64,000 bases of DNA, taken from Thermoproteota archaeon (GTDB lineage Archaea > Asgardarchaeota > Jordiarchaeia > Jordiarchaeales > Freyrarchaeaceae). A program made the translations under genes and the position numbers. Below are positions 38,669 to 55,536 of the stretch, piece by piece. The stretch is taken from assembly GCA_029258835.1 (NCBI GenBank), contig JAPDJY010000030.1, forward strand, positions 64,001-128,000, written 5' to 3'. Each line of letters opens with the position of its first letter. Within the stretch, counting starts at the first letter, position 1. The notes below the pieces were generated by a model. That model had not been told where the DNA came from. It did no database searches and saw only the letters and a program-made list of their open reading frames with translations.

Positions 38669-38824
38669 AACCATCTTTTTCTCTCTTTCCTTAATTATTC
38701 CCGGTTCTATTCCGATTTCTAAGGGTTCCCTAAATGCTTGAAATTATATCTTAAACCAGGGATAAACCCCCACCTGTCTTCGCTGGTAGTTTATGACCTT
38801 ACAGGAACCCTCTACCCTGTTTTG

Positions 38825-39736
38825 TCATGAAGAGGTTCTTGCCGGAACCTTACCGGATTCTCCTTCCGCTTCATTTCTCAACTTGCATCTGAGTTTATCC
38901 AACAAGTGTTGATAGGTTTCGATTGGCAGTATGTCCTTCTTAATCGGTACTTTCATTCTCATCTTTCTCATGGCTTCCAAGTTTATGATTCCAACCTTGA
39001 AATCCTCCTCTCCAACTTTGCACTCAACAGTCACCCTACCTAGCGGGTCTATCACCCTACTATGGCCAAAGAATGAAACACCTCTTTGCTCCCCTGCAAC
39101 GTTAACATAAACGAGGTATGCTGCGTTCTCGAATGCTCTTACTGGAAGTACCATGTCGAAGAGGCGCTTTGAAGTTACTGGGGCAGCAGAGATATTTATT
39201 ATTATATCAACGTCACAGTATCCGTATATTCTTGACGCCTCGGGAAAGGCGAAGTCGCGGCAAACTTGCAAGCCTATCCTCCCCAGCCGTGTATCGCAAA
39301 CTTTCATTTCCTCCCCTGGCCTGCAGTACAAATGCTCGAAGAACACTCCCCTACCATACTTTCCAGTCGGTAGGTGAACCTTGTTGTAAACGTTAACTTT
39401 CCCGTCCGGCTCTAGGAGGATCGCACTGTTGTAAACCACCCCCCTCTGTTTTGACGGCTCTGTTGGAGCGCCGAAAACGATGTGTAGACCTGTTTTAGAA
39501 GCTAAAGATGAAAGTTTCCTTATCGACTCCCCGTCAAGTCGCTGGACACACCTGTAAAACGTTTCAAAATCCTTTCCGTCCATGACCATGTAACCGCAAA
39601 GGCACATTTCCGGGAAAACTATCATTTCCGCCTCTAAACCTGCTGCCCTCTCAATGAGAGAACACATTCTCTTAAGGTTTCCGTCAACGTCTCCACACAC
39701 GCTATTGATCTGCGCTAAGGCGACCTTAAACTCCAT
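38825..39736 (-). CDS. Carbon-nitrogen hydrolase (nitrilase superfamily)
   Basis: FPE, YNKVHL, VCRD catalytic E-K-C triad; ATG 39736 preceded by GGAGG. Confidence 0.88.
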   Translation of the reverse strand: MEFKVALAQINSVCGDVDGNLKRMCSLIERAAGLEAEMIVFPEMCLCGYMVMDGKDFETFYRCVQRLDGESIRKLSSLASKTGLHIVFGAPTEPSKQRGVVYNSAILLEPDGKVNVYNKVHLPTGKYGRGVFFEHLYCRPGEEMKVCDTRLGRIGLQVCRDFAFPEASRIYGYCDVDIIINISAAPVTSKRLFDMVLPVRAFENAAYLVYVNVAGEQRGVSFFGHSRVIDPLGRVTVECKVGEEDFKVGIINLEAMRKMRMKVPIKKDILPIETYQHLLDKLRCKLRNEAEGESGKVPARTSS

Positions 39737-39843
39737 AAATACACCTCCAAACGGCTCAGCTGAAAGAGAAGTTATAGCTGAAAGAATATATAACGTTATA
39801 AGTCCCCTCCCCCCTTCCGGCGCCAAACCTTTTTATCTCCTCC

Positions 39844-40872
39844 TTGCTCAGTAAGAGAAGGAAGCCCTTTAAGAACCAGCTGAACCGGGGATGCGCCTTG
39901 ACTCCCCTCGAAGCCGTCGTTTGGCCATGTACATTAAGGTGTAATGGTACCTGTGTTCACTGCTATGTTAGAGGCCGCTTTCACAGAGAGCTGGGGGTAG
40001 GCGACGGGAAGCGTATCGTGGCTGAAGCGGCGAGGGCGGGAGCTAAAATGATCTCCTTCGTCGGCGGGGAGCCTCTTCTGAGGGAAGACTTGCCATCCCT
40101 CATGAAATACGCTGCAGACCTTGGAATGAAGGTTGAAGTGGTGACGAACGGCTTTCTTATGAACATTAGGGTGGCAAGCGTCCTCGCCCGCCTCGAAGCA
40201 AAGGTGTTGTTAAGCGTTGATGGAGCATCTAAGGTAACATGTGAGTCCATAAGGGGGCAAGGAGCATGGAAAAAAATAATGACCGCTGTGGATGTTATGA
40301 ACTCGGCGGGTCTAGAGTTTATCCCCGTAATGGTTATAACAGGTCTTAACGCTCATGAAGCCGGAGATTTCGTCTCTTTTTCATGCGACATTGGGGGGAA
40401 GCTAGCATCCTTCCTAACGCTAATTCCCTCTGGAGCGGCAAAGGACAACAGGCTTCTAGACTTAAGCCCTGAGCAGTTAAAGCAGTCGCTGCTCAGCATA
40501 GATGAATCAGCAGACCGTCTTTCCTACTCGGCAGAGGTCCGCTGCACCCCCTTCGCAGAAAGAATCATCACGTCAAAACATGTTAAGGTGTGGGGCTGTT
40601 ACTATAACGTCATGGACCTTAATCCAGTCGGCGACGTGCTTCTCTGCGACGTTTTAGATGTTAAGCTCGGCAACATACTGGAGGATGGTGGTCCGGAAAG
40701 CTGGAAAAAGCTTTACAGCAGGAGAGTGGACATGGGCTTACTGGACTGGGAGAACTTGGAGGGTAAATGCTTAACCTGTCCTGTTAGGGGTTTCTGCCTT
40801 GGAGGATGTAGGGCGAGAGCCTACCTGGCAACTGGCTCCTTCTTTAAACCCGATCCCTTATGTCCCTTCTGA
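39844..40872 (+). CDS. Radical SAM/SPASM protein (start likely TTG 39898)
   Basis: CNGTCVHC, GGEPLL, TNG; CLTC...CLGGCRARA...DPLC. Confidence 0.88.
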   Translation: MLSKRRKPFKNQLNRGCALTPLEAVVWPCTLRCNGTCVHCYVRGRFHRELGVGDGKRIVAEAARAGAKMISFVGGEPLLREDLPSLMKYAADLGMKVEVVTNGFLMNIRVASVLARLEAKVLLSVDGASKVTCESIRGQGAWKKIMTAVDVMNSAGLEFIPVMVITGLNAHEAGDFVSFSCDIGGKLASFLTLIPSGAAKDNRLLDLSPEQLKQSLLSIDESADRLSYSAEVRCTPFAERIITSKHVKVWGCYYNVMDLNPVGDVLLCDVLDVKLGNILEDGGPESWKKLYSRRVDMGLLDWENLEGKCLTCPVRGFCLGGCRARAYLATGSFFKPDPLCPF

Positions 40873-40899
40873 AAGCCGACCACGAGCATTAAGCAATTT

Positions 40900-42228
40900 T
40901 TAGTGTAAGCTGTATTTCTCTCCCAATTGAGGTATCGTGACGCTTGTCCCAACCCCTTTAATGAACTTTGCGAATACCTCCGGGTGCTCACAGTGAATGG
41001 GGAAGACTTGCTTCGGCTTTATTCTGCTTACAACATTCTTCAGCTCGATTGGCATTATGTGGCCTGAAACATGCACACGGTACTGGGGTAGCCCGTAGTG
41101 CCTCAGCCAGTTAAGCATCTTATTGAAGTCTATCTCCATTTCTTCGTTGAACGGCTCTGAGGAGGAATACACGTAGCAGCTTCCAGGTACAGGTTTAATA
41201 TCGATTAGCTCTTCGAAATCGTAGAGGGACGCAACCAGTATTACCTCTCTTTGCCTTTTTGAGACTTCATAGGCGTCAACGACGGTCTCTCCCTCTAAAA
41301 CCTCCCTCTCCCACCTCTTGTATGATTTCTTCTTTTTCTTGAAGATTAGGATGTGCTCGTCTTTCACGTCTGGGATGTTGAGATGTGGGTCTTCTTTCAG
41401 CCTGCTCAGGAGGTAGGCTTGTCTCGCTGATACAATTAGCCTCCTCCCGCTTTCTTTAGCGACCTCGTAAAAAGTTCTCAGCCTGTCAATGTCTGTGCTG
41501 GCAAAGTAGGTGACTATTAACCCGTCGGTGTTACCCACTATATAGCTAAGTTTATTCTTGACCTCTACTTCGGATGAGACGTGTGCAGCCGATATGTTTG
41601 TGGCCTCCGTTACCAAAACGTCGACGTCCTCCGATGCAGCTTCATCTACGAAGTCCTCGGTTAACTCCTTCTTGGCTCCATGCATCCTGAAGTCTCCTGT
41701 GTAAACTATAGTTCCTTCCGAGGTATAGATGATGAACCCGTATGACCCGGGAACCGAGTGGTCCACGTGAACTGGTTTAACTTCGACGCCACCCACCTCA
41801 ATTTTCCTCCCAGTCCTGAACGTTTGAAGCCTTTCTCTTCCAACGCCTCCCCCAACAATCCATTTTCCCATGTTGGTAAATACATCCATCATCGTTGCCG
41901 CCGTCTCACCGCAGAAAACAGAGATCTCATCCTTAACTATGGGGACATAGCCAGCGTGGTCCATGTGAACATGGGATACTATGACCGCGTCGACTGCAGC
42001 TTCCTCCCTGTCGAACCGGTAGACGCCTCTAAGCGGTGGTATCATCCCAAGATCTATCAGTCCTTCCTCCCTTCTAGGTGATAGGAAGGGTGTAGCGTAG
42101 AACTTCCCCATTTGAGCAAATGAAACGCCGAAATCCAGGAAAATCTGTACATCCCCATCCTCAAGTAAAACCTTATTCCCTCCAACCTCCCTCAATCCAC
42201 CATAGAACGTTAGACTGACCAAAGGCAA
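40900..42228 (-). CDS. MBL-fold / beta-CASP RNase J-like hydrolase
   Basis: SHVHMDH, DHS, YTGDFR, HVSGH, PIHCEH. Confidence 0.85.
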   Translation of the reverse strand: MPLVSLTFYGGLREVGGNKVLLEDGDVQIFLDFGVSFAQMGKFYATPFLSPRREEGLIDLGMIPPLRGVYRFDREEAAVDAVIVSHVHMDHAGYVPIVKDEISVFCGETAATMMDVFTNMGKWIVGGGVGRERLQTFRTGRKIEVGGVEVKPVHVDHSVPGSYGFIIYTSEGTIVYTGDFRMHGAKKELTEDFVDEAASEDVDVLVTEATNISAAHVSSEVEVKNKLSYIVGNTDGLIVTYFASTDIDRLRTFYEVAKESGRRLIVSARQAYLLSRLKEDPHLNIPDVKDEHILIFKKKKKSYKRWEREVLEGETVVDAYEVSKRQREVILVASLYDFEELIDIKPVPGSCYVYSSSEPFNEEMEIDFNKMLNWLRHYGLPQYRVHVSGHIMPIELKNVVSRIKPKQVFPIHCEHPEVFAKFIKGVGTSVTIPQLGEKYSLH

Positions 42229-42270: not shown

Positions 42271-42606
42271 TCAACTTTTCTTCTCTTTCTCGGCCACCTT
42301 CAAGGTTTTCACGTCGCTTTCTATGTCATGGTATATTCTCAGCTCTAAATCCCCTTCAGGAATGGCGACGATTTTCCCGTGTACCATTTTAACCATGCAA
42401 CTGGTGATCTCCGCCTCACTCACCACTTCTTCAGCAACAGTCCTTTCCTCCCGCTTTCCTCCTCTATCGATAACTAAGATCACGGTTACCCTCCAAGCCT
42501 TCCCCTCAGGAGCGACCTCAAGCTTCTGGAAGCCATCATACACGACCATTTTTTTAACCATGATCCCCCTCTCGAACTCGTTCACGCTAAAAATGCTTTC
42601 AGTCAA
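42271..42606 (-). CDS. Hypothetical beta-rich protein
   Basis: Protein-like ORF co-oriented upstream of the MBL gene. Confidence 0.55.
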   Translation of the reverse strand: MTESIFSVNEFERGIMVKKMVVYDGFQKLEVAPEGKAWRVTVILVIDRGGKREERTVAEEVVSEAEITSCMVKMVHGKIVAIPEGDLELRIYHDIESDVKTLKVAEKEKKS

Positions 42607-42750: not shown

Positions 42751-44181
42751 TTGCTCCTCCTTAACGATAAGGATGAGGGAAAAACCATAGGATTCTTCGT
42801 GGTCGACGTCCATACGCACCTAGGTAAAGAGGAAGTAATGGACGGCAGAGGAGTAGCCTACCGGTCTAACACCCCTAGACAGACAATTGACTTCTACCAT
42901 CGCCTCCAGTTTGAAATAAGGTCTTCCATAGACTCCTCCCCTGATAAGTATCGTTTCACACCTGCTTCCCCCCTAACTATGCCACCCCCTCCATTAAAAC
43001 CATTCTACGATGCCATTGGAAGGTCATGGGGGTGGACTGTAGACCAGTTCGTGGCTTTCCCATTTAACGATTTTAGAGCCTACTCTACTAAGCCAAGCTT
43101 CCAGAAGCCTAACAACCTGATTCTAAAGCGCTCGTTGACCCTCCCATTTTCACCACGTCTTTTGGGATTCATTAGGGTTGACCCGCATGACGGTGAAGAC
43201 GCCGTTAAGGAAGTTGAAAGATGTGCTGAGATCGGCGCAAGAGGATTGAAACTTCACCCGATCTCTCAGAACTTTCTAGACGAAATACTCTCGAAGAACG
43301 TGAAGAACGTCACCTTAGCCGCAGTCAACAATGGACTGCCCGTCCTGTTCGACTGTCGCTACTACGCCACAGCAGAGGACATATACCAGCTTACACAGGA
43401 AGTACGTGGAGAAGCAAAAAGAGGGGACTTCGCAATCATACTCGGCCATTCATGTATGGAATACGCGAAGGACGGACTCTACGAAATACTCGGCGACCCG
43501 AACATTTACGGTGACACGTCAGGAGTGCGAGGGGACGACATCCCCCTTTTCTTCAGGAAGCTCAAATCCCACCTTGAAGACAGCTGGTCAAGCAAAATAC
43601 TCTTCGGAACAGACTACAACTACTTTACAATCCCTCAAGCCTTAGACTTTATAACCTACCTTTTAACGTGGGAATTCCATGAAGAAACGGATGCGTCTTG
43701 GATGGACATCCAGAGAATACTTGGAGCAAACGCCCTATCACTCATAAAACCATACATCCACCGTTCACGTGGTGAAATTTTTTTCGCGACACTTAAAGGA
43801 ACCGCACAGGACGCATTCCTAAGCTCCCTACAACGCAGGTTAAGTGAAAAAGCACGTAGGAAGGAAGTGAACAGTTTAACCTACGACCCCCTCGTCACCG
43901 GAAGAGGGAGAATAGACCCCTCAAGCTTCATTTCATCGTTTGGCAAGATGGATGGAAGGCAAATGAGAGCCATCCTTTTTAAAAAGTCCCTTCTACATCC
44001 CGAACAAGCCATGATAATATCTATCCCAATCAAACCACCATTCCTTCCAAACCTGAGAATAAGAAGCCATAACTCAAGCCAGTACTTCGAAATCGTACGG
44101 TTCTCCCTCACCAGAAAGCCGGTGGAAGCATCCTCCAGTATCGACGCCGAAAAATTGACGGAAAAAATCTGCCGTCTGTAA
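42751..44181 (+). CDS. Amidohydrolase-family metallohydrolase with C-terminal extension
   Basis: VDVHTH, GLKLHP, ILGH, DTS, FGTDY, GANA; ~140 extra C-terminal aa. Confidence 0.82.
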   Translation: MLLLNDKDEGKTIGFFVVDVHTHLGKEEVMDGRGVAYRSNTPRQTIDFYHRLQFEIRSSIDSSPDKYRFTPASPLTMPPPPLKPFYDAIGRSWGWTVDQFVAFPFNDFRAYSTKPSFQKPNNLILKRSLTLPFSPRLLGFIRVDPHDGEDAVKEVERCAEIGARGLKLHPISQNFLDEILSKNVKNVTLAAVNNGLPVLFDCRYYATAEDIYQLTQEVRGEAKRGDFAIILGHSCMEYAKDGLYEILGDPNIYGDTSGVRGDDIPLFFRKLKSHLEDSWSSKILFGTDYNYFTIPQALDFITYLLTWEFHEETDASWMDIQRILGANALSLIKPYIHRSRGEIFFATLKGTAQDAFLSSLQRRLSEKARRKEVNSLTYDPLVTGRGRIDPSSFISSFGKMDGRQMRAILFKKSLLHPEQAMIISIPIKPPFLPNLRIRSHNSSQYFEIVRFSLTRKPVEASSSIDAEKLTEKICRL

Positions 44182-44323
44182 TTTGTTCATCCATCTTCTT
44201 TCCTCCATGCACTTATAGTTTCGTGTAAAACACCGTGAATGCGCATTTTCCTCCATTACGGGTTTTTCCAGAAACTTTTTAACATTTACACCTACTAAAA
44301 GGTGTAAGCGGGGGGATGTTTTT

Positions 44324-45649
44324 ATGTCCGTCAAACTTGAGGTCGTCAACGCAGGAGCCGCCGATGGACGTGCATTCATGAACAAGAACGACATGAACCA
44401 GCTTGGCGTCGACGACTTCGACGTGGTGGTTTTCATTAACGAGTACGAGGACTGGGGGGCCGTGCAGGTCATGTCAAGAGAAGACTGCCCTGAAGGATAC
44501 ATCATGATCGACGAGGACGTCCTAGACTCCGCAAACGTCTCCGAGGGAGACACCGTCACCGTCAAGAAGAAGAAAGTCACAGGTGGAATAAAATTCGTTC
44601 AGCTCGGCGTTGAACCAATGGAAGGCCAGTCGACGGAGGACGTGGTCGTGTGGGTCGCAGATCATGTAGGCGAACTAGCACGAATACTCAAAAAGAGACC
44701 CATATACAGGAACCTTGAGTTAAGCTGGCGAGACGCCGAGTGCGGCCACATCAAGCTCAGAGTCCAATCCACCAAACCTGAACTCTACGGTGAAGATGTC
44801 GGAATAGTCGACCCGACCGGGCACGAGGTAACCTTCGAGATAGTCCCCGCCTTAGACATGACGTTTAACGCCATCCTCATGATCGATGTTTCGGGCTCCA
44901 TGCAAAAGAAGGACATGAAAGTTAAGAACGTTGACGGCGCAATAGAGGGACTTAGAAAAGGCATGAGAGAGACGCCTCGCCTCCAAGAATTCCTAATAGG
45001 AATGGAGGAAGGCGGCATGGTCAGCAGGATAAAGGCCGCCGCCTTAGCGACGCTGCTCTACCTCTCCCTCAAGATCGGGAGAGGATGGGGTGAAAACGTT
45101 CAAGTGATAACGTTCGCCGACCAAGTAGAACCGTTAACGATAACAGATCAGGATGGCAACACAACCACAGTAATTAAGTGTACTGGCGAGAGCAGGGCGC
45201 TCGGCCTTGAAGTCATAGGCGAGTACATATTAGAGAGGTGTCAAGAGGGAAGCGGGTTAACGTTCATGAGCGGCGCCCTAAAAACAGCAGCCGAACTCGC
45301 TGAAAGGTTCCCGCCAAACCCAAAAACAGGAAAGCCAAACCCGGTGATGTTCGTGCTCCTCTCGGATGGCTACCCTAACACTGGCGATGAGGCGGCTGGG
45401 ATACCTGTTAATCCAATACCGGTGGTAAGGAACTACTTCTCCGGAAGGCCGGAGTGGGTCCTCTACACTATTGGGATAGGCGAGGCGGACGTAGAGCTCA
45501 TGCGTAGGTTAGCCGAGATCGGTAGGGGTGAGTTCTTCAAGGCAGACGACTTCGGCGACCTAACACGTTGGTACGATCTCCTAGCACAGCGTTTTGCCAT
45601 ATCCGTTAGGACCACACCTTCGCAGTTCGCCGAGGCAAGCGAACTCTAA
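44324..45649 (+). CDS. CDC48/NSF N-domain fused to vWA domain (no AAA ATPase)
   Basis: N-terminus RAFMNKNDMNQLGV..FDVV...EGYIMIDE...ANVSEGDTVTV (double-psi barrel) and LKKRPI...LRVQSTKP (CDC48_2); vWA MIDAS IDVSGSM, T..SGAL, LLSDG. Confidence 0.8.
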   Translation: MSVKLEVVNAGAADGRAFMNKNDMNQLGVDDFDVVVFINEYEDWGAVQVMSREDCPEGYIMIDEDVLDSANVSEGDTVTVKKKKVTGGIKFVQLGVEPMEGQSTEDVVVWVADHVGELARILKKRPIYRNLELSWRDAECGHIKLRVQSTKPELYGEDVGIVDPTGHEVTFEIVPALDMTFNAILMIDVSGSMQKKDMKVKNVDGAIEGLRKGMRETPRLQEFLIGMEEGGMVSRIKAAALATLLYLSLKIGRGWGENVQVITFADQVEPLTITDQDGNTTTVIKCTGESRALGLEVIGEYILERCQEGSGLTFMSGALKTAAELAERFPPNPKTGKPNPVMFVLLSDGYPNTGDEAAGIPVNPIPVVRNYFSGRPEWVLYTIGIGEADVELMRRLAEIGRGEFFKADDFGDLTRWYDLLAQRFAISVRTTPSQFAEASEL

Positions 45650-45685
45650 CTTCCCGCAACCTTAGAACGTGGAAAGAAGGAATCA

Positions 45686-48600
45686 TCATTTCCTCCTTTT
45701 TACTATGATAACCTTCTTGCTGAAGGCGTCTATTATGTTAGGTGGAAGCTCTCGCTTATTAATGTCAACTTTAGCCTTCAGGTCAAACTCCATTCTGTAG
45801 GGAACGCTGGGGGCAATCCATTCTATTGGTCCGATGTCTTTCTTTTCGTCTTTGATCTTTCCACTCCAGATTTCCTTAACGCCTAGGGGGCTCTCAGCCA
45901 CTAGGCGTATCCTAACTGTTTCCTTAATTCTCTTTTCCACGAGCAAGTTAACTTTTATCTTGTCTCCTTCTCTTGTCAGCGTGGGTATAGCGGCATCCCT
46001 AACCTTGACCTTTACTAGTGGTCTTAACGGAGGGGTAACATCTACCGTTTGCGTAGCCCTCTGTTGCACGTAATTAGCCTCTTTTCCCTTGTAGCTTAAG
46101 GTGGCCAGCAGGTAGATTTTCTCCTCTACGAGCCATGGTGGAACCTCGATTTCACCATAGACATCCTCTCTTCCTTTAGGCTCTATGACCATACTAAACC
46201 CCTCCTTTCCTCCTTCCCCCGTCAGGGAGCATACCCGAACTTCTCCTCTGACCCTAACTCTTCCATTCCCGACGTTGCGCAGTCTTAAGTGGTATTTCAC
46301 GTTCTCTCCCGCCTGCACGGAAGCTTTCTGAATTGTTAATCCATGAACGTTTACGGGGGGCTCGGGTAAAACTGGGATCGTAAGCTTCCTCTCGTAAACC
46401 TTAACGTTCTCCACTTTAACTTTCAGGTTCACGGCGGCCTCCTCACCTTTAACGCCCTCCGTGCCTATGCTAATGGGGAGAACGTACCTCCCATTCGTTA
46501 ACGAATACTCCTGAACGCTGGAGCTTTTAGACGTGGCTGCAGTCAGGGAAACCCTAACAGGAGTGATTACCCCTCTAACTTCAACTTTAACCTTAAACAC
46601 CGCAGCATCTACGGGTACAATCGCCTTGGGGGCTTCTACTCCTAGAACCTTAACAGTCTTCCTTGCCGACAGCGGCGCCACCTCTATGATCCGCGTCTGC
46701 CCTTGGGCGACGACCACCCCGTCATAAAGTATTTCACATCTAACCCTAAACTTGCCGGCTTTGACGTCTCGGCCGGCTTTAACTTTATACGTTAATCTCC
46801 TCGAGTCGTGAACAACGATTTCCCTGTGATCCAACTGTTTAACTTCGGAGTCGACCACTAGGACCCGGACCCAGAACGGGCCAGGCAAGTCTGGGTTCAA
46901 GTTCCTTACGTTAAAAACAACCCTGCACGTTTCCCCCCACTGCACCCTGCTCTTAGATACTTTCTCGTCTAGTGCTACCTTGGGTTTAAGGGCTACATGG
47001 GAGACGTCAAGTGCGCGTGAAACACGCACACTCCCCTTACTCTTGACTCTAAAGGGTGGAACAGCCTGTGCGGGTTCTGGAACGGTCAATAAGCGCCTTT
47101 CCTCCACCCTCCCCTGCCTTCTTTTAACAGTAGCTCGTGCCTCCTTCCCCGCTCCTCTAACCCGGGCTGGTTCCTCCCTCCTCACCGTCACTTGAGGCTT
47201 CGCTTTCTCCACCTCCCGCCGCTCTTCCCTCTCCTTCACAGGTACAACTACCCTAATCAGCTGGGCTTCCTCCTTGGCGACAGGAACCCCTCTCCTTTCA
47301 ATTTTAGCTTTCCTCTCCGTTTTTTCTTCCTGAACAATTATGGGTGATGACTCGTACTCCGCCACCAGTTTCTCCCTGTAGAAGACCTGTACTTTAACTG
47401 TATATTCCCCTGCTCTAGCCGCTGGGAGAGATAGTGTTAAAGTTGTTGGGAGAGACACGTGCTTCGCCGCCAAGAGCTTAGCCTTATCTCCCTCCCTCAA
47501 GTATGCCCTAACCCGATACCTCCCCTTAAACTCCGCCGTCTGCGCCTCCACTCTCAACTTTATCTCTCCCCTCCTCCTCTCCACGATTTTCTTGGGGATG
47601 CTGACCGGGAGGATCCTGATGATGGGGGTGGCAATGGCGGTGAACGTCTTGGTTTCTACCTCACAAAGCTCGTTTCTCACTTCGTCCTTCAAGATGAACT
47701 TTAAACGGCACCTTCTCTTACCTTGAAACGCGGCGAATGGCACCTCTAGGGGGAGCTGCCCCCCCGTCACCTTGAGAACACCGTTCCCAGGGATTTCCAC
47801 CCTCTTCACAGCCGTTCTAAGAACGGCTCCCCCCTCTAAAACAACCTTGGCTATCAGCGTCCCCTTCACGGGGGCACTACCGGTCACCTCCAGCGTGAAT
47901 GGGATCCGCTCTCCCGCAGCCACCCGCGTAGCGGTGACGCTTGCCATAGCCTTCACGTTAACTGCCGCCTTCCTCCTTTCAGCCACCTCGAACTCTTCCG
48001 CTTCTCCGAAGGCTGCGACTAGCGGGTCTCCATCCCCTATACAGTACTTTCTCGTCATCTCCATAAGGTGCGAAATAGTCCTGTCAATCCTAGACGCTGA
48101 GGCATCGTAAAGGTAGAGAAGGAAGTCGGCTGGCGCACAGGGCGGCTCAACCCTGCTGGATCCGTAAACAGACACCAAGACGGGTTTTAGGTAGTCCCAG
48201 TATCCAAGTTCGTTTATTTCTTCTCTGATGAACTCTATCATTCCTTGGGCTGCCTCGAAGAGCTTGGAATTCGGCTTTCCAGCCGGGTTTATGTTATACT
48301 TCTCCGCAAATCCTCGGTCATGCTTCTCAAGCCCCCTGTCGGGGAAAAACTTGCCCAGCAAACCGTAAAGTACTGCTTTCTCCCTGTTCTCCACCAGGGT
48401 AGCTGAGGACACGTTCGGGATCTTTCCGCCTTTCCTCACGATTTTTACTGCTTTGAGGGCTAACGCCTGTAAGAGTGCTGCTACGGCGAGCCGCCTAGCT
48501 ACGCTGAACTGTGCGTCGAAAACACGAACTTCTATTGTCCCGTACTCTGTAAAGGGGAAGACGTCAACGTACCTGTCGTCAGGCGGCTCCCTCATGACTG

Positions 48601-49372
48601 TTTCATCAAAGGTCTTCCTGTTCAGTTCTTCAAGGTAGGGGACATAGTGATCCTTGTCTGCCGGCCCCGTCTGTCCAGTGTTGTACTTAAGCCTTAAGTC
48701 GCGTACACAGTCCCTCCCTATGATGCTTGTTCTCCCTCTTCTTCGAACCCTAACCACTCCGGTGGGCTTCCCGTTCATGAATGGTGAGTTTACCGTTAAA
48801 GCTATCAGATGGGGTATGAAGGCTCGAATCATGTTGTATACGGCGGCCTTCTCCTTTCCGTCATTAACGCCTATATGGTAGTGGTCGCCGAACGTTACCC
48901 CGCTCCTGTACTCCTCCTCAAGAGGGTTAAACCCTATGGATATCAAGTTGTAGCCTCGCGGAAGAGCGGCGAAAGCCACCTTGTAAAGCGTCTTTATCCA
49001 CCATGAAAGCTCTTCCATCGACTCGCATGGGGGGGTTACAAGCTCTAGGATCCACGTTATCTGACTCACGTTCGGGTCAGGACCGAAGACGTCAACGTCG
49101 ATCCTACCCTTATCCGTCTTATAGGAAACAACTACGTAAGGAAGTCTCCTCCCCCTCCTTTCCTTTTCCTTAAGCGTAACCCCTAAAATTTTACTTGTAA
49201 AATCCAGCCCCTTCTCCTTTGACACGGTTTTCTGAAGGATGTTAGCGGCATTTTTCATGAGGTGGTCCCAGACACGTACGAGTCTCCCTCCTTGGAGGAG
49301 ACGTCCCTTCTCGTCGACGACCTGGACCTCCATTTCTACTCCTTGGGTGAAGGGAAGCTTCGCCATTTCCAA
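45686..49372 (-). CDS. GCS2/YbdK-type carboxylate-amine ligase fused to multiple Ig-like beta-sandwich repeats
   Basis: GVEME, ELVTPP, GDHYHIG, ALTVNSPF, GTIEVRVFD; C-terminal ~750 aa of alternating beta pattern (GExIPF, VRNL, LRNVG) with a charged linker. Confidence 0.82.
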   Translation of the reverse strand: MEMAKLPFTQGVEMEVQVVDEKGRLLQGGRLVRVWDHLMKNAANILQKTVSKEKGLDFTSKILGVTLKEKERRGRRLPYVVVSYKTDKGRIDVDVFGPDPNVSQITWILELVTPPCESMEELSWWIKTLYKVAFAALPRGYNLISIGFNPLEEEYRSGVTFGDHYHIGVNDGKEKAAVYNMIRAFIPHLIALTVNSPFMNGKPTGVVRVRRRGRTSIIGRDCVRDLRLKYNTGQTGPADKDHYVPYLEELNRKTFDETVMREPPDDRYVDVFPFTEYGTIEVRVFDAQFSVARRLAVAALLQALALKAVKIVRKGGKIPNVSSATLVENREKAVLYGLLGKFFPDRGLEKHDRGFAEKYNINPAGKPNSKLFEAAQGMIEFIREEINELGYWDYLKPVLVSVYGSSRVEPPCAPADFLLYLYDASASRIDRTISHLMEMTRKYCIGDGDPLVAAFGEAEEFEVAERRKAAVNVKAMASVTATRVAAGERIPFTLEVTGSAPVKGTLIAKVVLEGGAVLRTAVKRVEIPGNGVLKVTGGQLPLEVPFAAFQGKRRCRLKFILKDEVRNELCEVETKTFTAIATPIIRILPVSIPKKIVERRRGEIKLRVEAQTAEFKGRYRVRAYLREGDKAKLLAAKHVSLPTTLTLSLPAARAGEYTVKVQVFYREKLVAEYESSPIIVQEEKTERKAKIERRGVPVAKEEAQLIRVVVPVKEREERREVEKAKPQVTVRREEPARVRGAGKEARATVKRRQGRVEERRLLTVPEPAQAVPPFRVKSKGSVRVSRALDVSHVALKPKVALDEKVSKSRVQWGETCRVVFNVRNLNPDLPGPFWVRVLVVDSEVKQLDHREIVVHDSRRLTYKVKAGRDVKAGKFRVRCEILYDGVVVAQGQTRIIEVAPLSARKTVKVLGVEAPKAIVPVDAAVFKVKVEVRGVITPVRVSLTAATSKSSSVQEYSLTNGRYVLPISIGTEGVKGEEAAVNLKVKVENVKVYERKLTIPVLPEPPVNVHGLTIQKASVQAGENVKYHLRLRNVGNGRVRVRGEVRVCSLTGEGGKEGFSMVIEPKGREDVYGEIEVPPWLVEEKIYLLATLSYKGKEANYVQQRATQTVDVTPPLRPLVKVKVRDAAIPTLTREGDKIKVNLLVEKRIKETVRIRLVAESPLGVKEIWSGKIKDEKKDIGPIEWIAPSVPYRMEFDLKAKVDINKRELPPNIIDAFSKKVIIVKRRK

Positions 49373-49470
49373 TCACGCCTTTAAGAAAGAAACAGTCCCC
49401 TTAAAGGTTAAAGGATCCTGAGGCGATAAACCTTTCTCCATCCCCACTAACCCACGGAGCTGTTCCCCGC

Positions 49471-50991
49471 TTAGAAGGCAGGCTTCAAGAAGCGGTCATA
49501 AAATGTTCTAATAGCCTTCTCCTCTCTTTCCCTTACAAGGTTCTTTTTTGAGAGCATCTCTAAACCCCTAGAGAACAGCTCCGCCACCTTCGGATTTAAC
49601 AAGTAATTAAACCTTTTCATGCCAGTCGAGATGAACTGTAGGCTTTTCCTTCTTTCCAGACTTCCTCTCACCGTCTTCTCTAAGTTTCTTGAGGCCTGAA
49701 TTCCTCCTGCCTCATCTATGGTTAAAGGTGGAATAACTATAACCTCCTCCCTCCTATCCCTGCGAACCTTCGCAGCAAAAAACGGGACGTAAACGGTTAC
49801 CGGAGCATCCACCTGGACAGTACTGGAAGAGAGAAGGAACCGCTTGTTCTCCTCAACCCCTCTCTTAGCACGAGGCAACCACTTCTGGAAGGATGCTACA
49901 TACTCCTCTCTTAGCGTCATAGCCTTAAAAAGGAGCTCCTTAACCCTTTTAACGTCCAAGTCCATCCTCGCCACCTCCCTCTCAAACTCGTTAAGAATCC
50001 TCTTCCTCCTTTTCTGAAACCTTTTTTCCTCTCTTCTCTTCCTTCTCTCCTTTTCCGCTTCAAACCTCTCCTTCTGCTTAAGGTAGTTTTCGCACTTCCT
50101 CTCTAGGGAAACCAGCTTCTCCAAGATTTCCTCTAAAAACTCTATGGCATCCCCAAGCTTATCCAGCATGTCTTCAGGCTCGCTTACAGAGGATAAACCC
50201 GTAAGCTTACCCTCTACCCTCTTAGCGTACCGTGAAAGCACCGTGATCCTAGGAGGAACCCCGCCAAACTTCTCCCTATCTATTCTTTTAATTTCATCCT
50301 CCATCTCCTGGCTAGCCCTGCTTATCTCCCTCTCAGCTTTCTCCCTCAGCCTTCTCCTCTCTCTTTCCACATCCGCCTCAACCTCCTCCACCTTCCTCCT
50401 AAAGAAATCAAGTCTTTCCTCTAGGAAAGCAGTAAACCTCCTATACTCCCCAGAAGCGTCATCCACCTTCTCGTCTGTAAGAAACTGGGTGATTGCTGGA
50501 TTTCTGCAAACGACGTCTAGAGTTACTTCTGCAGGGACAACCTCGTCAGGATTAACCCTCCACTCTTCTAAGAAGGAAAGCCGCTCCTTTAACTCCGATA
50601 GCACCCCCCCAAACAGTATCCCTTTCAATTCTATCTTCGACAGCTTGAGACTGTCCTTCACCAGTGAAACATATCTCTCTAAGCCAGCGACGAAATCCTG
50701 CAACTCGTTCGATTTAAGCTGATCATATGGTGGAGGCGGCACCCCTAAGCCACACTTAACACCCTCAGACCATGAAGCCGAGGAATCAATAGCCACCATG
50801 TTGCCTCCATCTACCTGAACTAAGTGTACCGCCGAGAAGAATCTTGAAACTTCGGCCAGCTCGTAATCTTTAGGGGCTCTTCTCCATATTTCTCGAAGCG
50901 CCAGGGCTATCTCAACGTATTCCCCCTCACTAGGACGGTATACTTTCCCTCTTTGAAGCACGAACGGGATAGATAAAATAGATACTGGCAT
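49471..50991 (-). CDS. Long coiled-coil protein with globular ends
   Basis: E/R/K-rich heptads over the central ~220 aa; VYVPFF motif. Confidence 0.75.
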   Translation of the reverse strand: MPVSILSIPFVLQRGKVYRPSEGEYVEIALALREIWRRAPKDYELAEVSRFFSAVHLVQVDGGNMVAIDSSASWSEGVKCGLGVPPPPYDQLKSNELQDFVAGLERYVSLVKDSLKLSKIELKGILFGGVLSELKERLSFLEEWRVNPDEVVPAEVTLDVVCRNPAITQFLTDEKVDDASGEYRRFTAFLEERLDFFRRKVEEVEADVERERRRLREKAEREISRASQEMEDEIKRIDREKFGGVPPRITVLSRYAKRVEGKLTGLSSVSEPEDMLDKLGDAIEFLEEILEKLVSLERKCENYLKQKERFEAEKERRKRREEKRFQKRRKRILNEFEREVARMDLDVKRVKELLFKAMTLREEYVASFQKWLPRAKRGVEENKRFLLSSSTVQVDAPVTVYVPFFAAKVRRDRREEVIVIPPLTIDEAGGIQASRNLEKTVRGSLERRKSLQFISTGMKRFNYLLNPKVAELFSRGLEMLSKKNLVREREEKAIRTFYDRFLKPAF

Positions 50992-51093: not shown

Positions 51094-51930
51094 TTGGAAA
51101 AAAGGGAGGAGGATGCTTTGAAGCTTAAGGTCAAAGCTAGCTGCAACGTGTGCGGGGACGTATACCACGAAGTAGACCTTGAAGGAGAGCGCCTATCATG
51201 GTTCAACGACCAGCTTAAGAAGAGCGGCGTAGCCCCTGTAAGCTGGGATCACGGAGACCACATACTCGTCGTATACGTGGATAAGCGCGGGTCAGCTAGA
51301 GCCTCCTACACCTATCCAGTCGTGAAGACGCGGCTGACAAAGCAAAACTGGAGAAGGGTGAAGGCGAAAGCCCTAGTCGACTCGAACGTGAACATGCTCT
51401 TCGCGAACTGGAACAACAAACTATACTGTGACTCATATTGGCGCTTGGCAACCGAGCCCGAGGAAGTTCTTCCTCACGCCGACACAGCCAGGATTGCCTC
51501 ACTGGACGGCCGCGAATTCTGGATTCTTTCATCGGGTGCTAACAGAATGATCATCGCAAGGATGCTCGGGTGGCATAGAGACTTCTTCCAAGCCATGCAG
51601 GAGCTTCTCACCCAAGCTACGCTAGCTGAACCGGACATAGTTGGAAATCCTGTAGTTCAAGCTGTTTTAGCCTCAATAGCGTCGACTCCCTTCTTCTACA
51701 CTTCAAACTCCGCCAGCGTGTTCTCAGACCTAAACAAGCGAGTGAAGGCTACTAGAGCCGCCCTTCTAGCAAAGCACAGCTTAAACGGTGAGCTTGCACT
51801 CCTCATAGACTCCCTTAACAGCCACGGCACGTTGAAGGACGCCCTCCTCTCAGCGACACCCCGTCAGATCTCCCTTCTCGTGAAGTACTATAGGACGTTG
51901 AAGAATACGGGCGTTTTAAAAGCGGTCTAG
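51094..51930 (+). CDS. Hypothetical with N-terminal putative Zn site (CxxC...HxxH)
   Basis: CNVCG...HGDHILVVYVD; first gene of a tight 3-gene run. Confidence 0.7.
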   Translation: MEKREEDALKLKVKASCNVCGDVYHEVDLEGERLSWFNDQLKKSGVAPVSWDHGDHILVVYVDKRGSARASYTYPVVKTRLTKQNWRRVKAKALVDSNVNMLFANWNNKLYCDSYWRLATEPEEVLPHADTARIASLDGREFWILSSGANRMIIARMLGWHRDFFQAMQELLTQATLAEPDIVGNPVVQAVLASIASTPFFYTSNSASVFSDLNKRVKATRAALLAKHSLNGELALLIDSLNSHGTLKDALLSATPRQISLLVKYYRTLKNTGVLKAV

Positions 51931-51942
51931 GAGGGTGAAAAA

Positions 51943-53007
51943 TTGCTTATGGTAAGAAAGTTCAGGTGCGCTATGAAGCTTCTAAGAAATGTTAACTCAC
52001 TTTTAAGCGTCTCAAGGCTTGGAAGAATGGTTAATGCCTTAGCTTTAGTCATAGGCCTCGACAAACTCGGCCTCTTAGCTCTCCTAGAGTCTCCAAGAAG
52101 CATCGAGGAGATCGCCGCCTTCATAGGGGACGTTAAACGCCAAGCCTTCCTAGAGGAATTACTGAAGGCGCTGGTCAACGAAGGGGTCCTAGATGGGTCA
52201 AACGGGCTATTCAGGGTAAACAAAGCAACAGTCAAAAAATTGTACAGTATGAGGGGCAGCCACCCCTTCTTTAAAGGCGCTGAATACCTCCTAGCCGGAT
52301 TTGAAGAGTTCATGTATGAAATACTAGTTGAGGTTCTCAGAGGAGCCTCCTTCGACTTCGTCTCCCCAGAGGTAGCCACCCTATTCTACCTTCAAAATAG
52401 CAGTCCCGCCTACAAGATTGGAAGAGAAATCCTCCTAGAGCTTGGAGGCGGAAAAAATCTTAAAGGCAAGTGCATCCTCGACCTGGGCTGCGGCTTCGGA
52501 GTCGAACCACTAACCATTCTGGAATATTTGGACTTTAACTGCCACCTCATCTGCGCCGACTTCTTCTCGAACGTGGTCGACGAGTGCATGCACACTATGG
52601 TTGAAGGTGAAAGCACGCCTCTTCCCGTACCTAAACCCCTCAAGGACCTCGACAACGTAGAGTTCGTGGTGCTAGACCCATCCATGAACACGCCTTTCCC
52701 CCTCCCCGACGAGTCGGTTGACTCGGTCTTCTCCTTCCAGCTCCTCCACTGGAGCAGCTACCCTCAAAGGATAATCAACGAGTGCGCAAGGGTTCTAAGG
52801 AAAGGCGGAACCCTCATGATCGCAACACCACTCAAGGACGATAACGAGACCACCACGATAGACGTGGTGGTGAAGGCATCTGGTGGAAACAGGATCTACA
52901 CTGAAAGTGAGCTGTCAGCGTTCATGGAGGAGGCAGGGCTAGAAGTGCATTGTTCATTCCTTTCAAACTTTATGGTGGCAAGGAAACCTAACAACAGCCG
53001 GAAGTGA
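51943..53007 (+). CDS. wHTH-fused class I methyltransferase
   Basis: SPRSIEEIA HTH; ILDLGCGFG, PDESVD, LHW, RVLRKGG. Confidence 0.85.
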   Translation: MLMVRKFRCAMKLLRNVNSLLSVSRLGRMVNALALVIGLDKLGLLALLESPRSIEEIAAFIGDVKRQAFLEELLKALVNEGVLDGSNGLFRVNKATVKKLYSMRGSHPFFKGAEYLLAGFEEFMYEILVEVLRGASFDFVSPEVATLFYLQNSSPAYKIGREILLELGGGKNLKGKCILDLGCGFGVEPLTILEYLDFNCHLICADFFSNVVDECMHTMVEGESTPLPVPKPLKDLDNVEFVVLDPSMNTPFPLPDESVDSVFSFQLLHWSSYPQRIINECARVLRKGGTLMIATPLKDDNETTTIDVVVKASGGNRIYTESELSAFMEEAGLEVHCSFLSNFMVARKPNNSRK

Positions 53008-53717
53008 TGCCTATGCTACGTGAACTCCTCATAATAAACGTTGACGGAGTGTGCGCTGTATCGGTCTCCCCCGACGGCGTCGGGGTAGACTCCCAGCTCA
53101 TGGCGGGGGTGATCGCTGCGATTCAAAGGTTCTGGGCTGAGGTAACCGGCGAGGTCCCCACAACCATAACCCTTGAAAGCAGCGAAATAGCGATCAAACG
53201 CTTTACGACGGGGAAAAGGGACTGGTTTCTAGTCTTAATAATGGACCCTGAGGGTAAGAGCTCCATTCCAAGCGTTGAAAACGCGGTGTTGAGTGTTGTA
53301 AGCAAGTGGAAAACTTTCTTTGAAGAATTTAACGGAGAGCTTTCAGCCATTAACAAACTGAAAAAGGAGTTCGTAATGGCTCTTTCAAAGGTCCCCTGTC
53401 CTAGGATGAATAAATGCGTTTTCAGGGGTAAATTTTGGAAGCCTGAAGCATGCAGCGTCATAGCACCATGTCCTTACATAGACAAGAAGAAATGGGCGAG
53501 GAGAATAGAGTTTTACAGTGCGGTGATAATGCCGAACGCGTACAAAATATTAACGGTAAGCAAGGAAGGCACCCCGCTCAGGCCAGGGATGACCGTCGCC
53601 GAAGCACTGGAAAAGCTTAAAGGAAACGAGGAAGAACTCCTCGTCATGATCGAGAAAGGACTAGTTAAACTTGTGAAAAACGTGGATGGAATGCAGCTTG
53701 CAACATCTAAAATGTGA
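53004..53717 (+). CDS. Longin/roadblock-like domain protein with Cys-rich C-terminus
   Basis: LLIINVDGVC...DSQLMAGVIAAIQRF; CP...C...C...CP. Confidence 0.68.
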   Translation: MMPMLRELLIINVDGVCAVSVSPDGVGVDSQLMAGVIAAIQRFWAEVTGEVPTTITLESSEIAIKRFTTGKRDWFLVLIMDPEGKSSIPSVENAVLSVVSKWKTFFEEFNGELSAINKLKKEFVMALSKVPCPRMNKCVFRGKFWKPEACSVIAPCPYIDKKKWARRIEFYSAVIMPNAYKILTVSKEGTPLRPGMTVAEALEKLKGNEEELLVMIEKGLVKLVKNVDGMQLATSKM

Positions 53718-53778
53718 AAGGAAAAACGTTGCCGCATTAGCAGAACAATTTAAATCTCCCTCCTACACCGTTTAACCG

Positions 53779-54801
53779 ATGAAGCCTCAAGCCACAAGAA
53801 GGATCTTTGAAGTGTCAGAGGGAATTCCCCTGATAGGATGCATAGCTTTCGGGGTAATAGACAGAGGGACAAACCTGATCCAAGTTAGGCCAACTTCCAT
53901 GTGCCCCCTCTCCTGCGTCTTCTGCTCCACCGACTCGGGTCCAAAGTCCAAAAACAGGCTTTCAGAATACTTGGTTCCATTAGACTACCTCGTTGAGGAA
54001 TTTGAAAGGCTAGCTCGCGTTAAGGGCAGAGGCGTCGAAGCCCACATAGACACTGTTGGAGACCCGCTAACATATCCTAAGCTGGTGGAGCTCGTACACG
54101 AGCTCAGCAACGTGGAGAACGTGACCGTAGTATCCATGCAAACCCATGGCTCCCTCCTAACAGAGAAGGTCCTAGACAGGCTGTCGTCAGCAGGTTTGTC
54201 AAGGATAAATCTCTCCATAGACTCCATGGATGTGGAGATGGCCAGGAAGCTCTCCGGCACCGAATGGTATAATGTTGAACGCGTGGCCAAGATGGCAAAA
54301 TACATCGTAGACAACACTGCAATAGACCTTTTAGTAGCTCCGGTCTGGGTTCCAGGCATGAACGATCAGGAAATACCGAAGATAATCGAGTTCGCCATCA
54401 GGGTTGGCGCTGGGAAAAGATGGCCTCCCCTCGGGATACAAAAGTACGAGGCACATAAACATGGCAGAAAACCTAAGGGAGTGCGCCCGATTCCGTGGCG
54501 TGCCTTCTATGGCAAGCTGAAAGAATGGGAGAGAAGGTTCAATGTTAAGTTAAAACTCGCCCCTTCGGACTTCTCTATAAGGAAAACTGCAACCATCCCA
54601 ACTCCTTACAAGCTCTTCGAGAAAGTAAAGGTTAAAGTCGTGGCTTTGGGATGGCTGAAACATGAAAAGTTAGCTGTCACGGTGAGGGGGGACAGGACGG
54701 TGACCTTAATCAGGGCGGATCACGTACCCATAGGTGCAAAGGTGAAAGCAAGGGTGATCTCAAACAAGCATAATATATACGTAGCTGAACCAATACTATA
54801 A
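53779..54801 (+). CDS. Archaeal radical SAM protein with C-terminal TRAM-like domain
   Basis: FGVIDRGTN, CPLSCVFCS, MQTHG, KHNIY. Confidence 0.85.
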   Translation: MKPQATRRIFEVSEGIPLIGCIAFGVIDRGTNLIQVRPTSMCPLSCVFCSTDSGPKSKNRLSEYLVPLDYLVEEFERLARVKGRGVEAHIDTVGDPLTYPKLVELVHELSNVENVTVVSMQTHGSLLTEKVLDRLSSAGLSRINLSIDSMDVEMARKLSGTEWYNVERVAKMAKYIVDNTAIDLLVAPVWVPGMNDQEIPKIIEFAIRVGAGKRWPPLGIQKYEAHKHGRKPKGVRPIPWRAFYGKLKEWERRFNVKLKLAPSDFSIRKTATIPTPYKLFEKVKVKVVALGWLKHEKLAVTVRGDRTVTLIRADHVPIGAKVKARVISNKHNIYVAEPIL

Positions 54802-54849
54802 CAGATGACTCCGGAATCCACATTTAACCCCTTATAAGAAGGTGATCGC

Positions 54850-55536
54850 ATGTACGAGATCTTGTTTCTCGTCGATAACAGCGAGCTTGTGGAGGGAGTT
54901 AAGTCAACTTGGGGCTTATCGATCTTGGTTAAGTCACCCTCGGAAAAGCTTCTCTTCGACGTCGGCCCCTCATTCAGCCTCCTCACCGCAAACGCCAGCA
55001 AGCTTGGTGAAGACCTCAGCGACGTAAATACCGTGGTCATATCGCACATGCACTCTGACCATGCAGGCGCCCTTAAAGCCTTCATCGACTTTAATCCTGC
55101 CGTCCGCATATTCCTGCCTGCAAGCCCGCTTTCACCCCATTACTTCCATGCAAACTTAACCTACGTTAAAGGTTGGCTTGCCCTTTCTGAAGGCATCCAC
55201 GTTACAGGTCCTTTCCCGTCGTTTCCAGAGCAAGCCTTAGCTATACTAAGCAGACGCGGCCCCTTCATCCTAGTTGGCTGCTCCCACCCTGGACTGACTA
55301 GTATACTGAAAAAGGTCGTTGAAGAAACAGGCGTAAGCGGGATTCTAGGTGTCGCAGGGGGATTCCACGTCTCAGTCTCTAAGGAACTCCTAATAGCTGC
55401 AGAGTACTTGAAGACACTTTCCCCATCCATAGTAGTTCCCTCACACTGCACTTCTCAAGGAGCCATCGACTATCTTAAGTCGGAACTGGGTGAATGCGTT
55501 GTGAAGGGAGGTGTTGGGTTAAGACTAACCATTTAA
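54850..55536 (+). CDS. MBL-fold metallo-hydrolase
   Basis: SHMHSDHAG, GCSHPG, GGFH, SHCT. Confidence 0.88.
   Translation: MYEILFLVDNSELVEGVKSTWGLSILVKSPSEKLLFDVGPSFSLLTANASKLGEDLSDVNTVVISHMHSDHAGALKAFIDFNPAVRIFLPASPLSPHYFHANLTYVKGWLALSEGIHVTGPFPSFPEQALAILSRRGPFILVGCSHPGLTSILKKVVEETGVSGILGVAGGFHVSVSKELLIAAEYLKTLSPSIVVPSHCTSQGAIDYLKSELGECVVKGGVGLRLTI

Follow-up and report, generated by a model that had tools for sequence, protein, structure and literature searches.

A three-gene module of Asgard archaea combining a YbdK-like ligase, an amidohydrolase and a Cdc48N-vWA protein, with a possible role in reversible protein modification

Background

Pupylation, the protein-modification system of PafA, Dop and Pup in the Actinobacteria, pairs a ligase that depends on ATP and is of the glutamine-synthetase/GCL fold class with a second enzyme, by which the bond is undone or primed. 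This pairing serves here as the working analogy for the inferred mechanism of a locus found in a stretch of 64,000 nucleotides (hereafter the window) from an archaeon of the Asgard class Jordarchaeia (GenBank assembly GCA_029258835.1, contig JAPDJY010000030.1, positions 64,001 to 128,000 of the forward strand). The locus encodes a giant carboxylate-amine ligase, a metal-dependent hydrolase, and a protein that joins an N-terminal Cdc48-type barrel to a von Willebrand factor A domain (the Cdc48N-vWA protein). The locus differs from pupylation in that its hydrolase is a TIM-barrel protein of the Amidohydro_2 family that is not paralogous to the ligase, in having a docking protein for which pupylation offers no equivalent, and in that no Pup-like or proteasome gene was found in the Pfam-annotated loci.

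Each of the three proteins has closer relatives taken singly. The N-terminal 480 residues of the ligase match the YbdK/GCS2 ligases, with which the Glu-x-Glu, His and Glu/Arg motifs align. However, YbdK is a single-domain protein of ~370 aa, whereas the ligase has 1228 aa, scores under the cut-off of the YbdK model TIGR02050, adds a helical insert, six predicted beta-sandwich domains and a basic disordered linker, and is accompanied by the hydrolase and the Cdc48N-vWA protein. The hydrolase shares its fold and its H-x-H, His, His, Asp pattern with the ACMSD/IDCase/LigW/LigI group (PF04909), but is only 12-16% identical to the solved members and carries an extra C-terminal domain. The barrel of the Cdc48N-vWA protein matches PF02359 and the N-domain chains of p97/VAT, a domain also found in NSF/Sec18, PEX1 and Ufd1, and its vWA domain has the complete metal-ion-dependent adhesion site (MIDAS) of adaptors such as Rpn10 and ITIH; in contrast to Cdc48/p97, it has no AAA+ modules. 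According to a review, the N-terminal domain (NTD) of DEPDC5 resembles the Sec18/NSF N domain and the SABA domain resembles Sec23 (PMC8534245). By that description the NTD-SABA unit of DEPDC5/Iml1, of the GATOR1/SEACIT complexes, combines the two fold types of the Cdc48N-vWA protein, and in an identical order; the Cdc48N-vWA protein lacks the SHEN, DEP and C-terminal domains of DEPDC5/Iml1. Our literature searches found no paper describing a ligase-hydrolase-Cdc48N-vWA module, and none on a fusion of a Cdc48-N barrel with a vWA domain.

An earlier note on this DNA had proposed a four-gene, ubiquitin-independent protein-tagging system at the locus. In this paper, we have compared the locus with related loci and genomes, and have examined the domains, active sites and predicted structures of its products. 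Three of the four genes cluster, co-occur, have been duplicated as a unit and evolve together, and we are confident that they form a real module.

Results

A three-gene module in Asgard archaea

The three core genes lie next to each other in the window. On the forward strand, the hydrolase gene (42751-44181, 476 aa, Amidohydro_2 PF04909) is followed by the Cdc48N-vWA gene (44324-45649, 441 aa, CDC48_N and then VWA), and the ligase gene (45686-49372, 1228 aa, GCS2 PF04107) converges on this pair from the reverse strand. A fourth gene, for a coiled-coil protein, completes the second of the two convergent pairs. The listing and translation of the open reading frames (ORFs) reproduced the coordinates and domains that the earlier note had given for all four, while the gap between the converging stop codons is 36 bp (45650-45685) and not 37 bp.

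Related loci were collected with a profile of the N-terminal domain of the ligase, taking one genome per species; 216 loci contained a relative, of which 80 were kept, and the window proteins were compared with every ORF of these 80 and of the further loci obtained through protein look-ups. As a single-protein query the ligase had returned no related loci, and it was the alignment-based scan that recovered them. The hydrolase and Cdc48N-vWA genes were found within 10 kb of the ligase gene in six different arrangements. In type A, of the Jordarchaeia and Freyarchaeia and including the window, the hydrolase and vWA genes are met by the converging ligase gene. Type B (Heimdall-type) has the hydrolase gene, then the ligase gene, with the vWA gene ~7.3 kb off; type C (Hod/Hermod-type) is a hydrolase-ligase-vWA operon; and type D (Thor-type) has the ligase gene and, ~7.4 kb off, a vWA-hydrolase pair. 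In type E, a second Jordarchaeial copy, the vWA-hydrolase pair converges on the ligase gene, a convergent layout like that of type A, and in type F (Lokiarchaeia-type) a short ligase gene (~570 aa) is followed by the hydrolase gene. Since the linkage of the trio persists through six rearranged orders, it is not a matter of inherited synteny.

Co-occurrence was examined with one profile for each protein (E <= 1e-30) in 301 Asgard genomes, 90 of them of high quality; related genomes in this set are non-independent samples. The ligase profile matched 170 of the 301 genomes (62 of the 90), the Cdc48N-vWA profile 171 (62 of the 90) and the hydrolase profile 171 (63 of the 90). All three have matches in the same 10 of the 30 families and none in the other 20 (for example, 0/29 in f5 and 0/19 in f12). 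The numbers of matching genomes in the ten families are 4/4 (f1), 6/6 (f2), 1/1 (f6), 64-65/76 (f7), 61-62/68 (f9), 15-16/21 (f21), 4/7 (f23), 1/1 (f26), 11/11 (f27) and 1/1 (f28). The linkage and the shared distribution that a four-gene system would require are therefore present for the ligase, hydrolase and Cdc48N-vWA genes, and this part of the earlier proposal stands. The clustering of these genes goes far beyond what chance would give. The coiled-coil gene does not belong with them, as its strong genome matches are confined to the two Jordarchaeia families (f1, 4/4; f2, 6/6).

The module is also duplicated as a whole. A second full trio with the same convergent layout is located on contig C11 of this genome, and two ligases, two hydrolases and three vWA proteins are encoded by all ten sampled genomes of the two Jordarchaeial families as well as by this genome, where the third vWA paralogue lies on contig C19 among uninformative neighbours. 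Trees of the three proteins were built for 27 loci holding all three genes, with the groups taken from the gene order and not from the trees. All three separate type A together with types B and C, {A,(B,C)}, from the Asgardarchaeia-type loci and types D, E and F, with support of at least 99%. Three trees with one deep split therefore indicate two old clades of the whole module, of each of which the Jordarchaeia keep one copy; the window locus is the clade-I copy.

Outside the Asgard-labelled records, only homologues of the ligase were found, all in one metagenome-assembled genome labelled Thermoplasmatota (GCA_040753035.1). One of the two (L108, L109) lies between genes for a BcrAD_BadFG ATPase and a beta-propeller protein, and the other precedes the gene of an unknown 766-aa protein.

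In the window, the module is flanked (37025-42228 and 51094-55536) by genes for a thermosome subunit, a carbon-nitrogen hydrolase, a methyltransferase, two radical SAM proteins, of which one has a SPASM domain, two proteins of the metallo-beta-lactamase fold, of which one has an RMMBL domain, and two proteins without a Pfam match. When the ORFs of all loci were clustered, none of these flanking genes fell into a gene family common to many of the related loci.

The three core proteins

The catalytic N-terminal domain of the ligase (residues ~1-480; 47933-49372, reverse strand) is of the YbdK/GCS2 carboxylate-amine ligase type. The protein scores 58.4 bits against GCS2 (PF04107; cut-off 21), and its best NCBIfam match is TIGR02050, the YbdK family, with 92.8 bits and E 2e-26, which is under the cut-off of 176.4. 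A profile of 19 orthologues had sequence matches in the PDB solely to YbdK (1r8g and 1tt4, E ~1e-13), and the ligase had no match to PF03136 (Pup_ligase; PafA, Dop) at E <= 0.1. E13, E15, E110, H164, H166, E281 and R283 are invariant in the 19 sequences, and the invariant residues of the metal/ATP site (the Glu-x-Glu, His and Glu/Arg motifs) fall inside three stretches aligned with YbdK.

The rest of the ligase forms a long arm, also on the reverse strand. Its first block (residues 481-684; 47321-47932) comprises two predicted beta-sandwich, Ig-like domains with a predicted local distance difference test score (pLDDT) of 78-90. It is followed by a linker rich in Lys, Arg and Glu and predicted to be disordered (residues 685-794; 46991-47320; pLDDT <50, model residues 205-314), with a positive net charge in 100-aa windows, and by a second block of about four predicted beta-sandwich domains (residues 795-1228 and the stop codon; 45686-46990; pLDDT ~82-95). 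The AlphaFold2 model of the whole arm (residues 481-1228; m5d23e7a07255) is all-beta, with a mean pLDDT of 80.7 and with the two blocks split by the low-confidence linker of ~110 aa. BLAST detected no internal repeats in the arm, and Foldseek matched it only to generic tandem beta-sandwich arrays (complement, alpha-2-macroglobulin, CD109 and chains of the ciliary central apparatus). Residues 481-1228 are strongly basic, with an isoelectric point (pI) of 10.1 and a net charge of +56. Full-length matches to the ligase across the Asgard archaea have 960-1416 aa, and the short ligases of ~570 aa in Lokiarchaeia-type genomes have no arm.

The hydrolase scores 37.4 bits against PF04909 (cut-off 26.4). 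D19, H21, H23, K167, H169, H233 and D288 are invariant among 23 orthologues and paralogues. In its AlphaFold2 model (pLDDT 87, predicted template modelling score 0.89), a TIM barrel is followed by a C-terminal alpha/beta extension (~residues 344-476). Used alone as a query, the hydrolase had no sequence match in the PDB. By structure, its best Foldseek matches there are IDCase (4hk5), ACMSD (2hbx), LigW and LigI-like proteins, at 12-16% identity, with a probability of 1.00 for IDCase, ACMSD and LigW; the listed fold matches comprise decarboxylases, lactone hydrolases, diiron enzymes and uncharacterised amidohydrolases. A complex prediction for the N-terminal domain of the ligase with the hydrolase scored 0.00, a value that counts neither for nor against binding.

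The Cdc48N-vWA protein is a non-enzymatic docking protein. It consists of a Cdc48-N-like double-psi barrel (residues 13-87), a middle region that is conserved, and a vWA domain, and scores 38 bits against CDC48_N (PF02359; cut-off 35.1) and 27.7 bits against VWA (PF00092; cut-off 23.8). In an hhalign comparison with the genome's own Cdc48, residues 18-87 align with a probability of 68%. The second subdomain of the Cdc48 N domain (CDC48_2, PF02933) had no match in the protein, so that only the barrel half is detectable by sequence. The MIDAS residues D188, S190, S192, T313 and D348 are invariant in 22 sequences. Of the three proteins this is the most conserved: identities are 70-87% within the Jordarchaeia and 44-49% with the Heimdall-type and Hod-type proteins. 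The protein is acidic (pI 4.68, net charge -23), opposite in charge to the basic arm of the ligase. The earlier note had described the three products as a giant carboxylate-amine ligase with basic Ig-like arms, an amidohydrolase with an extra domain and an acidic CDC48N-vWA fusion, and these descriptions agree with the Pfam scores above cut-off, the isoelectric points, the beta-sandwich domains predicted for the arm and the modelled extension of the hydrolase.

The C-terminal tails of the Cdc48N-vWA proteins vary between lineages. Heimdall-type proteins (P0151, P0156, P0160) have long, acidic tails with a single tyrosine as the last residue (such as ...DDEEDEY), which recalls the tail of alpha-tubulin; these tails are not conserved in other lineages. 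The Lokiarchaeia-type family f9 has a single vWA homologue of 717-749 aa (L104, L105, L106) with an extra N-terminal double-psi barrel and ~300 more residues, encoded in conserved synteny with an actin-family gene and the gene of a ~860-aa protein.

A hydrolase-vWA fusion and ubiquitin-fused paralogues

In single-linkage clustering, the hydrolase and vWA families were joined by one fusion protein of ~848-863 aa. Its residues 5-375 are hydrolase-like (hhalign 97.8%, E 7.6e-13) and its residues 467-753 are Cdc48N-vWA-like (hhalign 97.8%, E 8.3e-13). The order of the two parts matches the gene order, and the fusion is therefore evidence that the hydrolase and the vWA protein work in contact. This genome encodes the fusion as well, on contig C12, with 54% identity over 847 residues. 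The hydrolase domain of the fusion no longer has the H-x-H motif, the Lys/His pair, the second His or the Asp, and is therefore probably a catalytically dead copy with a structural role. One copy of the fusion has D-L-S-E-N as its MIDAS motif. On C12 the 848-aa fusion gene (C12:18408-20957; L116:9418-11964) is followed, 3 bp on, by a 390-aa gene without a known family.

In four other vWA paralogues (564-584 aa) the C-terminal domain is a ubiquitin, and their last residues read ...STAG, ...STAGG plus five residues, or ...STAGCK. In one contig (L093:1-7366; GCA_016932935.1, JAFGBX010000363.1), the vWA-ubiquitin gene lies beside genes for ThiF (E1), UQ_con (E2) and JAB proteins, in a compact operon that also encodes a membrane protein of 379 aa whose C-terminus has a RING-like zinc finger. 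Pfam calls no ubiquitin domain on this contig other than that of the fusion protein, which ends in STAGG plus five residues. On another contig, the same assembly has a ligase gene, incomplete at the contig end, with a vWA gene beside it (L018). In this genome, C11:56503-58171 contains genes for an 85-aa ubiquitin and an E2, together with a 342-aa ORF that includes a second ubiquitin-like domain; this region is ~43 kb from the second copy of the module and beside neither copy. With the vWA family connected to the ubiquitin system in one lineage, and with ubiquitin and E2 genes present in this genome, the label "ubiquitin-independent" given to the system in the earlier note is unsupported.

L093 also encodes, just upstream, a 370-aa pure coiled-coil protein. 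The coiled-coil proteins beside vWA-ubiquitin genes (L091:8847-9962, L093:1076-2188, L094:324-1355) have Lys-Thr-Pro motifs at both ends, such as PPKYQITSKTP and KTKRPT, and similar [ST]-K-[TV]-P motifs occur in the vWA-ubiquitin linkers of P0177, P0180 and P0181. These motifs could be docking or modification sites.

Accessory genes

The coiled-coil gene (49471-50991, reverse strand, 506 aa) and a gene for a 96-aa protein (42271-42561, reverse strand), which is divergent from the hydrolase gene and lies outside the coordinates given in the earlier note, accompany only the type-A loci of the Jordarchaeia. The coiled-coil protein is therefore a local and not a general component. It has globular ends and a charged middle, probably a coiled coil; it belongs to no Pfam family, and only sub-threshold coiled-coil matches were found, in the middle. 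It had been called Glu-rich, whereas it is net basic (pI 9.19; 99 Lys and Arg against 89 Asp and Glu) and not distinctively rich in Glu. Homologues are encoded at the equivalent locus in L001, L008-L010, L012 and L014. A word-based search for homologues gave nothing beyond the protein itself, probably because coiled-coil words swamped it, and the protein's matches in a protein atlas are unnamed clusters. Homology was rejected both to the upstream partner of the clade-II modules (hhalign 1.8%) and to the coiled coils beside the vWA-ubiquitin genes (hhalign 3.1%). A distant paralogue of 672 aa (E 1.3e-15) is encoded ~4 kb upstream of the window (C2:58177-59757; L103:4136-6154), and its N-terminal sub-threshold matches to Longin and Fuz_longin_1 hint that the family may start with a longin-like domain.

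The 96-aa protein is of no known family and had no match in Pfam. Its homologues, at 35-40% identity, adjoin the hydrolase gene in L001, L009, L010, L012 and L014.

The clade-II modules have a different partner immediately upstream of the ligase gene. This is a domain of ~165 aa without a known family, found as a protein of 215-250 aa or as the C-terminal end of a ~600-aa protein upstream of the short ligases. The domain is present at L090:10425-11174 and at 37 other loci, of the Thor type, the second Jordarchaeial copy and the Asgardarchaeia type. That the upstream families of ~230 aa and ~600 aa are detached ligase arms was rejected (hhalign 0.1-0.9%).

Discussion

We propose that the three proteins carry out a reversible modification of proteins. 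The hydrolase and the vWA protein would form a complex, and the ligase would use ATP to activate a carboxylate, which would then be coupled to an amine of a substrate protein or peptide; this substrate may be held by the MIDAS site of the vWA domain, by the Cdc48N barrel or by the basic arm. The hydrolase would cleave that amide, or prepare the substrate for ligation. The net result would be a reversible covalent mark, similar to that of PafA and Dop but made with different parts. The pointers to a role at the protein level are the non-enzymatic vWA partner, the Ig-like arm, the opposite charges of the arm and the vWA protein, and the ubiquitin-fused paralogue beside E1, E2 and JAB genes. The statement as a whole, the module together with this chemistry, is offered tentatively, as plausible and yet somewhat more open to doubt than not.

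A number of observations weigh against the proposal. By sequence, the ligase resembles YbdK and not PafA, and enzymes of the YbdK type are known for small-molecule chemistry. No characterised amidase or peptidase is among the listed Foldseek matches of the hydrolase, and for this reason the "eraser" role assigned to it in the earlier note is an assumption; these matches likewise include no characterised isopeptide-cleaving enzyme, and since its matched solved relatives are decarboxylases, lactone hydrolases and diiron enzymes, a role as an amidase would be new for the clade. No tag or substrate gene was found; the 96-aa protein was considered as a tag and rejected, as its C-terminus is not conserved, and the tails of the Cdc48N-vWA proteins vary. 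In addition, no Cdc48, PAN or proteasome gene was present among the Pfam-annotated neighbours examined, the ligase homologues in the Thermoplasmatota-labelled genome (892 and 724 aa) have no hydrolase or vWA neighbours, and subunits with a vWA domain and MIDAS site are also at work in metabolic enzymes, Mg-chelatase for example.

Several of these points suit the main rival explanation, which we consider somewhat unlikely: a small-molecule pathway, in which the two enzymes make or recycle a metabolite, part of a cofactor or a short non-ribosomal peptide (a gamma-glutamyl compound, for example), while the vWA protein and the arm would do no more than assemble the enzyme complex or regulate it, like the vWA subunit of Mg-chelatase. 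The enzyme families themselves favour a metabolic role, given the match of the ligase to TIGR02050, its PDB sequence matches to YbdK only, and the closest solved folds of the hydrolase, which are the small-molecule enzymes IDCase, ACMSD, LigW and LigI-like proteins; the missing tag gene and the armless ~570-aa ligases of Lokiarchaeia-type genomes fit as well. However, a co-inherited docking protein, an Ig-like arm of 750 aa, a dead fusion and a ubiquitin-fused paralogue would be unusual for a plain metabolic pair, and the surroundings of the module show no further genes of a single metabolic pathway that are conserved between lineages. A further explanation is a non-catalytic scaffold or a sensor, in which the Cdc48N-vWA protein is the counterpart of the DEPDC5/Iml1 NTD-SABA unit or an adaptor like Rpn10 or Ufd1 in the ubiquitin pathway, and the two enzymes act mainly within a signalling or proteostasis complex, sensing ligands for it or regulating it. 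The shared fold types and their order in DEPDC5 (PMC8534245), the NPRL2-like longin proteins reported in Asgard archaea (bioRxiv 10.1101/2020.10.19.343400), the sub-threshold Longin matches of the coiled-coil paralogue and the ubiquitin-fused vWA proteins beside E1, E2 and JAB genes are all consistent with it. But the IML1 model (PF12257) had no match in this genome at E <= 10, no DEPDC5 chain was listed in the PDB profile searches, including one with residues 85-300 of the Cdc48N-vWA protein as the query, the module is not beside the ubiquitin genes in this genome, and the invariance of the catalytic residues of both enzymes argues for real catalysis; we regard this explanation as quite improbable. 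It is scarcely credible that the two convergent gene pairs are unrelated and adjoin each other only by chance or through local synteny. Synteny within the Jordarchaeia alone could persist without a functional link, and the coiled-coil gene is indeed lineage-specific, but the idea is already contradicted by the linkage of the trio through at least six gene orders in distant Asgard classes, the identical family-level distributions, the congruent trees and the hydrolase-vWA fusion.

The protein-modification proposal can also be put in a bolder form: an Asgard-specific, reversible and ATP-driven protein-marking system, in which the giant YbdK-type ligase would write the mark and the ACMSD-fold hydrolase would erase or prime it, with an adaptor that is related to the NTD-SABA unit of DEPDC5/Iml1 or to ubiquitin receptors and that in some lineages is fused to ubiquitin. 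In this full form we think it unlikely.

Conclusions

Among known archaea, the Asgard group is the one most closely related to eukaryotes, and gene sets found mainly in this group may represent machinery that predates eukaryotic cell biology. Even if the module described here is metabolic, its parts are defined, soluble and intact in their active sites, and are directly amenable to biochemistry. If it does mark proteins, it would represent a third ATP-dependent tagging chemistry beside the ubiquitin-like and Pup systems.

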